Shown here in pieces: positions 11,635-13,068 of a stretch of 54,222 nt of DNA; position 1 is the stretch's first letter; every line of letters starts with the position of its first letter. The translations under genes and the position numbers were made by a program. Location: the NCBI GenBank assembly GCA_013288395.1, contig JABDBV010000001.1:1-54222 (forward strand), in the 5' to 3' direction. The notes under the pieces are model-generated. The model saw nothing but the letters and a program-made list of their open reading frames with translations, had not been told where the DNA came from and did no database searches. Source of the stretch: Gammaproteobacteria bacterium (GTDB lineage: Bacteria; Pseudomonadota; Gammaproteobacteria; DSM-16500).

Positions 11635-11816
11635 CGTCATTGTGTCGTCGTTGCGTCGTCGTTGCATCGTCGTTGCGTCGTCATTGCGTCGTCGTTGCAT
11701 CGTCATTGCGTCGTCATTGCGTCGTCATTGCGTCGTCATTGCGAGGAGCCCGTAGGGCGACGAAGCAACCCAGCCTCGGTTTCTGGGTTGCTTCGTCGCC
11801 CTACGGGCTCCTCGCA
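11635..11816. repeat. Family A (CGTC-type) palindromic repeat with left 11-bp minisatellite; interrupted by IS110
   Basis: About 9 copies of GTCGTCRTTGC, then GAGGAGCCCGTAGGGCGACGAAGCAACCCAG-loop-CTGGGTTGCTTCGTCGCCCTACGGGCTCCTCGCA. Confidence 0.92.
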
Positions 11817-11852
11817 GCATCTATATCCAAAATCAATAAAAATTTTTTGATT

Positions 11853-12788
11853 TTATCCCATAACTGGCGTCCATGGAGTTTGGCGATGCGCAATGCTGCG
11901 TAATATTTTCAGTAGCTTATGCGCCACTGCAATCAAGGCAACTTTAGATGCTTTGCCTTTATCTTTTAGTTTTTTATAGTACGTCTTGAGCTCTGGGTTA
12001 CAGCGCGCAGCCACTAATGCTGCCATGTATAGCAAGCCCCTTATTCGAGTTCTTCCGCCACGCGTTCGTCTTCGTCCAATCATTTTACCGCTATCACGAT
12101 TCATGGGCGCCAAGCCAACGAGTGCTGCTAACGTTTTATCGTGCTCAATAAGCAGTTCTGGTAGATCAACAATTAACTGCAAACCAGTAATCTTACCGAT
12201 ACCTGGTATAGAGCTGTATAACTGATAAAGCTTTTTAAGACCATCATTTTGGTCTACCTCATTATCAATCGCTTTTTCAATTTGTTCAATTTGCTTAGTC
12301 AGCTGCGCTATGTTTTTTTCGATCCATTTACCAACCAGTTTTTCGCATGTCTCCAAGCGATTTCTCTCTTGCAAACGCATTCCGATTAATTGCTCTCGTC
12401 GCGTTAATAAAGCTTTTAAAGCTTCATATTGCTGTGTTTCAGACTTCGCTTTAATTTCCATGCGTATAGCAAACTCTGCTAGCACCTTGGCATCAATTTT
12501 ATCAGTTTTTGCAGCTATGCCTGCTGCCTTTGCATATGCTCTCACGTGATTAGCATGCACTCTGCGATATGGTAAACCATTATCGTCAAGACATGCTTTA
12601 AGCGTGCGCTCATAACCACCAGTTGGTTCGTATACAATAAGATCAATTTCCTTGAGGGCTGTAGCATGCTTTTTAAGCCATGACTTTAAAGTACGAACTT
12701 CATTATTAACAGTGTGATAATCGCCATTCAAATAAACTACTAATTCATATTTTCCAACGTCAATTCCAACCACAGGACTTTTCATCAT
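11853..12788 (-). CDS. IS110-family DEDD transposase/recombinase
   Basis: GIDVGK, YEPTG and KTDKID (DEDD RuvC-like); SIPGIG; GLAP..RDSG with the catalytic Ser; AAGGAG RBS at 12793-12798. Confidence 0.96.
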   Translation of the reverse strand: MMKSPVVGIDVGKYELVVYLNGDYHTVNNEVRTLKSWLKKHATALKEIDLIVYEPTGGYERTLKACLDDNGLPYRRVHANHVRAYAKAAGIAAKTDKIDAKVLAEFAIRMEIKAKSETQQYEALKALLTRREQLIGMRLQERNRLETCEKLVGKWIEKNIAQLTKQIEQIEKAIDNEVDQNDGLKKLYQLYSSIPGIGKITGLQLIVDLPELLIEHDKTLAALVGLAPMNRDSGKMIGRRRTRGGRTRIRGLLYMAALVAARCNPELKTYYKKLKDKGKASKVALIAVAHKLLKILRSIAHRQTPWTPVMG

Positions 12789-12804
12789 AGTTCTCCTTAA
12801 GTTA

Positions 12805-12985
12805 CACTGTGATCGCTCCTTACTTATGAATTCGGGGCACTATCCCCATACATCTATTCGGAGCAAATCGTAATGTGGATGGGGAACCATGACTGCGAGA
12901 CGAGGCTAGCCCTCAAATGACGAACGGTTCCCCCATCCGCCTTGTTACACTGATCAAGTCTAACAAGGCACCCTAGACAGGTGGA
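12805..12985 (-). ncRNA. Predicted IS110 bridge RNA (5' stem-loop, target-binding loop, donor-binding loop)
   Basis: Stems 12939-12947/12961-12969, 12877-12888/12926-12938 and 12811-12819/12860-12869; loop segments match the target (TCGTCATT, CTCGCA) and donor junction (ATAGATG, ATAAG); ends approximate. Confidence 0.8.
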
Positions 12986-12997
12986 ACCAATATATAA

Positions 12998-13068
12998 ATG
13001 ACGATGCAATGACGACGCAACGACGACGCAATGACGACGCAACGACGATCCAATGACGACGCAATGAC
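12998..13068. repeat. Right 11-bp minisatellite arm of the interrupted family A repeat
   Basis: About 6 copies of AYGACGAYGCA, the reverse complement of the left arm unit. Confidence 0.9.

Follow-up and report, generated by a model that had tools for sequence, protein, structure and literature searches.

An intact IS110 element with unlike donor and target cores, inserted at the head of a CGTC-type palindromic repeat

The window (the whole 54,222-nucleotide stretch of gammaproteobacterial DNA analysed here) contains a 1,181-bp IS110 element on the minus strand, at positions 11816–12996, with donor core CT and target core TT; the left junction reads TT and the right junction CT. Very probably this is an intact element, likely moving as a circle, that is aimed at the head of a CGTC-type repeat, has a predicted bridge RNA directing its recombinase to CGTCATT|GCGAG and tolerates unlike cores. 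Because REP targeting by IS110 elements is established, the finding as first stated in a preliminary description, an element specialised on a host repeat, was an ordinary one. An IS110 element in a CGTC-type repeat would thus represent the established REP-targeting type, and the new part would be the stable CT/TT mismatch. The preliminary description had mentioned neither the bridge RNA nor the mismatch.

The boundaries of the element agree with those of the relatives L082 and L083 and of both copies in genome G026. The alternative choice, 11817–12997, is equally valid, since one T is common to both ends, and 11816–12996 is the choice compatible with the IS621 cut position. Removal of 11817–12997 regenerates CTCCTCGCA|ATGACGA, as in the intact repeats, so the insertion into a host palindromic repeat is as precise as had been claimed; nor is there any target-site duplication, the single T being all that the ends share. 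The element interrupts one arm of the palindrome, whose empty site on the element strand is CGTCATTGCGAG. On the same strand, the left junction is CGTCATT|TATATATT and the right junction ATAGATGCT|GCGAG. Terminal inverted repeats are absent, the longest exact inverted match between the two ends being 5 nt.

Three parts make up the element, all on the minus strand: a 208-bp left non-coding end with the predicted bridge RNA (12789–12996, from fold and covariation), a 37-bp right end finishing in ATAGATGCT and thus holding the donor core CT (11816–11852), and an intact 311-aa ORF for a DEDD/serine bridge recombinase (11853–12788, from domains and catalytic residues). Both PF01548 (the N-terminal DEDD RuvC domain) and PF02371 (the C-terminal domain) scored above cut-off in this ORF, the predicted catalytic residues D10, E54, D96, D99 and S233 are all there, and the only PDB matches were IS621 and ISCro4 (E ~1e-30). 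Judged from its sequence, this is an intact bridge recombinase element of the IS110 group.

The right end contains a −35-like TTGATT (11831–11836, minus strand) and the left end a −10-like TATATT (12989–12994, minus strand). Joining of the ends gives TTGATT-17-TATATT, a consensus match only, with a 17-nt spacing that exists solely in the predicted circle. From this we infer a candidate junction promoter across the circle; a promoter scan of the linear locus stayed at chance level (5 vs 3.7).

On one side of the insertion, the split-off head CGTCATT (13003–12997, minus strand) and its own 11-bp tandem array occupy 12997–13068. On the other side lies the rest of the palindrome (11734–11815), comprising an intact head CGTCATTGCGAG at 11734 and the inner hairpin, which was kept whole by the insertion and is directly downstream of the recombinase gene; outside the intact head is an 11-bp tandem array of 9 units (11635–11733). 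The insertion is flanked by convergent genes, for an ankyrin protein and deoC. The adjoining ankyrin-repeat protein has 882 aa (8899–11547); ankyrin-repeat proteins are typical of host-associated bacteria.

We could find one full copy of the element in its own assembly, which is 57% complete (blastn, tblastn), besides one short left-end scar at C4:18779. Among the sequencing runs listed as containing this DNA were 8 DNA runs and no RNA run; contigs from 4 of the 8 showed no joints, no circle and no empty allele at the locus. In X1 the contigs are deeper over the element (29 vs 12–16), a difference that does not measure copy number and was given no weight.

The 12-mer CGTCATTGCGAG occurs 52 times in the 1,329,511-base assembly, vs 0.09 occurrences expected from base composition, and the reversed 12-mer used as a control has no occurrence there. 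All sites but one (51/52) lie outside ATG ORFs of at least 150 aa, which make up 84% of the DNA; the 'safe harbour' reading offered earlier is compatible with this distribution, with a presumed fitness benefit. Of the 86 family genomes, 71 contain the 12-mer, in as many as 319 copies (at most 1 for the reversed control); such abundance marks it as a repeat that belongs to the hosts and was not made by the element. The repeat is multicopy and intergenic and forms inverted dimers. Its unit of ~39 nt has a bulged longer stem and an inner hairpin, with a CGTC head and a short CCA tail in the copies examined (CGTCATTGCGAG...GAAGCAACCCA), and the intact repeat folds into a very strong hairpin (z = −19.6).

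The empty palindromes that had been named in the window do exist, each with two target sites: 37028–37174 (heads at 37061 and 37149), 46202–46391 (heads at 46237 and 46325) and a heterodimer variant at 30728–30843 (heads at 30738 and 30826). A single repeat unit at 14764–14828 (minus strand; head 14817–14828) offers one further site. Among 64 host sites of the form [CT]GTCA..GCGAG, 58 have a TT core and none a CT core. Many repeat heads are preceded by tandem arrays of up to 11 units of 9 or 11 bp built from the head, for example at C7:26571, C35:11214 and C14:20002 of the same genome. The idea that the element makes these arrays was rejected, because they flank many empty repeats.

Folding of the 208-bp left end (z = −4.2) gives a stem-loop on the 5′ side and two hairpins with internal loops, and compensatory changes affect 17 of 27 consensus pairs across 13 relatives. 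A two-loop bridge RNA is predicted on these grounds; Rfam returned no bridge-RNA family in the left end, only sub-threshold hairpin matches. The putative target-binding loop (12877–12938, minus strand; fold and covariation) has the predicted sequence (U)UCGUCAUU and CUCGCAG. Its left guide UUCGUCAUU (12916–12924, minus strand) matches target positions 2–9, including the core TT, and its right guide (12893–12899, minus strand) combines CUCGC, the complement of GCGAG, with a core-binding AG. In the donor-binding loop (12815–12864, minus strand), AUAGAUG of the left guide (12849–12857, minus strand) matches the right end, and AUAAG of the right guide (12823–12827, minus strand) complements the CTTAT expected across the circle junction. 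With the register of IS621, all four guide segments fit the target and the donor. The target-loop pattern had no matches in viral contigs.

By analogy with IS621, the ends would join into a circle, generating ATAGATGCT|TATATATT and a sigma-70 promoter, TTGATT-17-TATATT, that would drive expression of both RNA and enzyme. The predicted bridge RNA would then direct the recombinase to CGTCATT|GCGAG, where the top strands would be cut after position 9 and swapped to give TT|TATAT and CT|GCGAG with no duplication; for IS621, a top-strand cut after T9 followed by strand exchange has been described (PMC11208158). The left junction would retain positions 1–9 of the target and the right junction positions 1–9 of the donor, in agreement with the observed junctions. 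With a cut placed 3′ of the core, the donor and target cores need not be identical.

At the level of pairing, the U at position 8 of the left guide would read the target T, and T8 would presumably form a wobble pair with the G present in each right guide. Consequently, the C/T difference at position 8 would cost no more than a G-T wobble in the right guide that meets the T. An ancestral CT-core lineage likely gained entry to a repeat head that lacks CT at that position. The mismatch was also considered as a forward drive of the reaction, which is unsupported: a G-C pair would be gained in the target loop and lost in the donor loop, leaving no net push. A point against the proposed mechanism is that the handshake base of the target loop (U) pairs better with the element's own target than with the donor, and in IS621 such pairing is described as hindering exchange (PMC11208158).

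The 86 family genomes and collections of genomes and metagenomes supplied the relatives, repeat returns of one insertion being counted once. Five full-length elements have the same guides and both ends visible (the window element, two in G026, L082 and L083), and all five sit at CGTCATT|GCGAG, at the same base of the repeat head, in repeats whose bodies differ. Together with target guides predicted to spell the repeat head, this upholds the proposed specialisation on a CGTC-type repeat. Insertions at unrelated sites and target-site duplications, named in the preliminary description as what would refute it, were looked for, and neither was seen among the five complete elements. L081 has the left junction of the window element. 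This junction recurs in relics of G061, G019 and G001, which a search with the left end brought up; it recurs also in relics of G033 and G000:C4, which are not independent, as the search pattern included the target. A class-wide sample of 400 genomes, 8 of them with matches at E ≤ 1e-70, contained no close relatives, and an order-wide search returned the family set again.

A wider survey addressed the cores. A bridge-RNA profile matched 142 of 182 upstream regions, 140 of which were parsed; a left-end candidate was present in 97 of these loci and absent in 43. Junction candidates came from a left-end motif with a control, the best candidate still being chosen by guide match. The match to an element's own guides was 6/6 in 39 of the 97 loci, vs 0.3% for guides of other elements, and 5/6 in 25, vs 2.7%; the 33 loci matching less than 5/6 were dropped before counts. 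Removal of duplicates and of one set from the unpublished genome G124 (L203, L207), on which none of the conclusions depends, left 42 distinct guide sets.

The donor core was CT in 40/40 guide sets, and the target core was CT in 37 and TT in 5 of the 42. With C at guide position 8 (35 sets), the target was always CT (35/35). With U at that position (7 sets), it was TT in 5/7 and CT in 2/7, so that U alone is no proof of TT preference. The handshake base of the donor loop was complementary to target position 7 in 41/42, as the IS621 model predicts. The window element lacks the shared CT core, one copy per end, that characterizes the IS621 type.

A single clade (100/98) unites the seven CGTCA|TT rows on a tree of 48 proteins; its sister group has CT cores, and two further TT rows fall elsewhere. 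Counting the second G026 copy, the clade has TT at 8/8 left junctions and CT at all 6 visible right junctions, and it reaches down to 46% protein identity. One member, L084, is not clearly within a palindrome. In L133, the TT lies within a tandem array whose other units have CT, and may be a one-unit variant. The relatives are not independent, a Fisher test on the guide-set counts gives an overstated value, and TT requires only ~3 changes on the tree. It seems reasonably probable that this lineage, spanning 46–100% protein identity, normally recombines a CT donor with a TT target through one guide-base change and G-T wobbles, with faulty excision at internal CT sites as a possible side effect. 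Our literature search, mainly of open-access texts, returned neither a natural discordant core nor an IS110 element targeting this repeat; the natural-element tables of Durrant et al. may contain cases.

The junctions could also be explained by a shifted cleavage register, in which the core is a single T, the cut falls between positions 8 and 9 (ends 11817–12997) and there is no mismatch to tolerate. Both boundary choices indeed regenerate the same empty site, with only one base shared. However, the AG by which IS621 reads CT is preserved in both right guides (41/42 target loops and 42/42 donor loops), and both junctions have CT in sister elements built on the same RNA scaffold, so a register shift is unneeded and we regard it as unlikely. 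The notion that TT arose only after insertion into a rare CT variant of the repeat, by mutation or by conversion to the repeat consensus, would accommodate CT being the core of the donor and, in the wider family, usually that of the target too. Yet the host has no CGTCACTGCGAG site, the left junction is TT throughout the clade, and guide position 8 is itself U; we consider such a history extremely improbable.

Another reading holds that the repeat is chosen mainly for its shape, as a hairpin or cruciform, with guide match secondary. All five complete insertions lie in repeats, the host repeat is a very strong hairpin, and ISPpu10 is described as requiring a target stem-loop besides base pairing (10.64898/2026.03.19.712850). 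The same source presents pairing as required and structure as merely enhancing; moreover, guides covary with flanks over dozens of unrelated targets, and the bodies behind the conserved 12-mer vary widely (L082, L083, G026). Shape as the main determinant is therefore very unlikely in our estimation, and we retain guide-directed insertion with unlike cores.

REP targeting by IS110 elements, which the preliminary description mentioned for IS621 and its relatives, has indeed long been known (PMC1525189; 10.64898/2026.03.19.712850). As described in the sources consulted, IS621 (E. coli) and ISCro4/IS622 have in common with the window element the DEDD-plus-serine enzyme and a two-loop left-end RNA, predicted in the window element, with four guides and handshake bases (PMC11208160, PMC11208158, 10.1101/2025.05.14.653916), as well as the lack of terminal repeats and a REP-type target; their junction promoter may have a counterpart in the candidate TTGATT-17-TATATT. 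IS621 differs in having CT in both donor and target, whereas the window element pairs a CT donor with a TT target in a CGTC-type repeat. All copies of ISPpu9, ISPpu10, ISPa11 and ISRm19 are likewise reported at one position of an extragenic palindrome (PMC1525189; 10.64898/2026.03.19.712850), but these elements use other repeats, and ISPpu10 has a shared CT core. IS1111-group (seekRNA) elements have the same protein domains and RNA-guided targeting (PMC11187229); the hallmarks of that group, sub-terminal inverted repeats and a downstream non-coding region, are absent from the window element.

The CGTC superfamily of REPs, as described in PMC3733652, shares with the window repeat the CGTC head, the AT stem start, the CCA tail, inverted dimers and heterodimers, and the intergenic location. 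Its families 1–4 have stems of 8–9 bp and loops of 4–5 nt (PMC3733652), unlike the ~39-nt bulged unit with an inner hairpin, and many window-type copies differ further in carrying outer 9- or 11-bp tandem arrays. The comparison with families 1–4 follows their text description (PMC3733652), and we name the repeat CGTC-type only. An unlabelled alignment in the supplement of PMC1525189, taken as that of ISRm19, shows a CCTC-headed repeat in the two rows examined; if so assigned, an IS110 element in a CGTC-superfamily repeat probably already has a precedent.

Published bridge-recombinase designs, in the sources seen, pick donor and target with identical cores, so unlike cores bear on engineering. 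Core changes in IS621 were described as made in donor and target jointly (CT to AT, GT or TT; PMC11208160), for genome editing only site pairs with the same core were kept (10.1101/2025.05.14.653916), and cross-talk disappeared when the cores differed, CT vs GT (10.64898/2026.04.29.721476). If our reading is true, core identity would be no mechanistic requirement and TT sites would be addressable with an unchanged CT donor; the natural C/T mismatch at position 8 predicts that wobble-compatible mismatches pass. Should this hold at the bench, for which the window element offers a ready enzyme–RNA pair, a design rule for programmable DNA insertion would be loosened. It also suggests that such elements would be misplaced or overlooked in catalogues that rely on a repeated core to locate the ends of IS110 elements.

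Some relics retain traces of lost insertions. In the genome of the window element, G000:C4:18779–18900 (L225) has a repeat head followed by the first ~10 left-end bases, which replace GCGAGGCC; this scar likely marks a second, lost insertion. At G019:C50:14121–14211 (L214), two inverted left-end stubs each follow CGTCATT, and both arms of one dimer seem once to have been occupied. G061:C50:139–349 (L213) has a left end with the entire bridge RNA but lacks a recombinase gene after it. In two related genomes, stubs of the left end, 18 bp long at G033:C25:17773–17802 and 41 bp long at G001:C18:6854–6906, sit between GTCATT and GCGAG, both finishing exactly in CT|GCGAG. They are possibly products of imprecise partial excision at internal CT sites, a lead only (n = 2); faulty excision of this kind, if real, may explain both stubs, and partial excision from a one-sided match is described in 10.64898/2026.08.31.748434 and 10.64898/2026.08.14.744561. 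Stub-like matches in G000:C54, G031, G050 and G029 were taken as chance, as no repeat body follows.

Repeats of the TGTCATC/TGTCATT type are entered close to their opposite end by other IS110 lineages, at ordinary CT cores (L165, L181, L187, L191 and L194 in G041; L166 and L182 in G052; L058, L060 and L074), meaning that the repeat superfamily was targeted several times. Further relatives in GTCA-headed repeats (L108, L121, L122, L131) have CT cores.

The window holds other repeats as well. A second palindrome family (CCCTCACCCCAACCCTCTCCC...) is present at 25139–25228, 27629–27734, 29582–30006 and 42473–43042; two of its members enclose 40–45-bp tandem arrays, and a related IS110 element in G053 (L189) sits after a sequence similar to this family. 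A third family (CCCCTCATCCGCCC...CACCTTCTCCC), at 20690–20862 and 40282–40427, resembles a repeat in the supplement alignment of PMC1525189. Finally, an array of 9-bp units with higher-order 78-bp repeats, at 41850–42296, is probably a low-complexity coding region.
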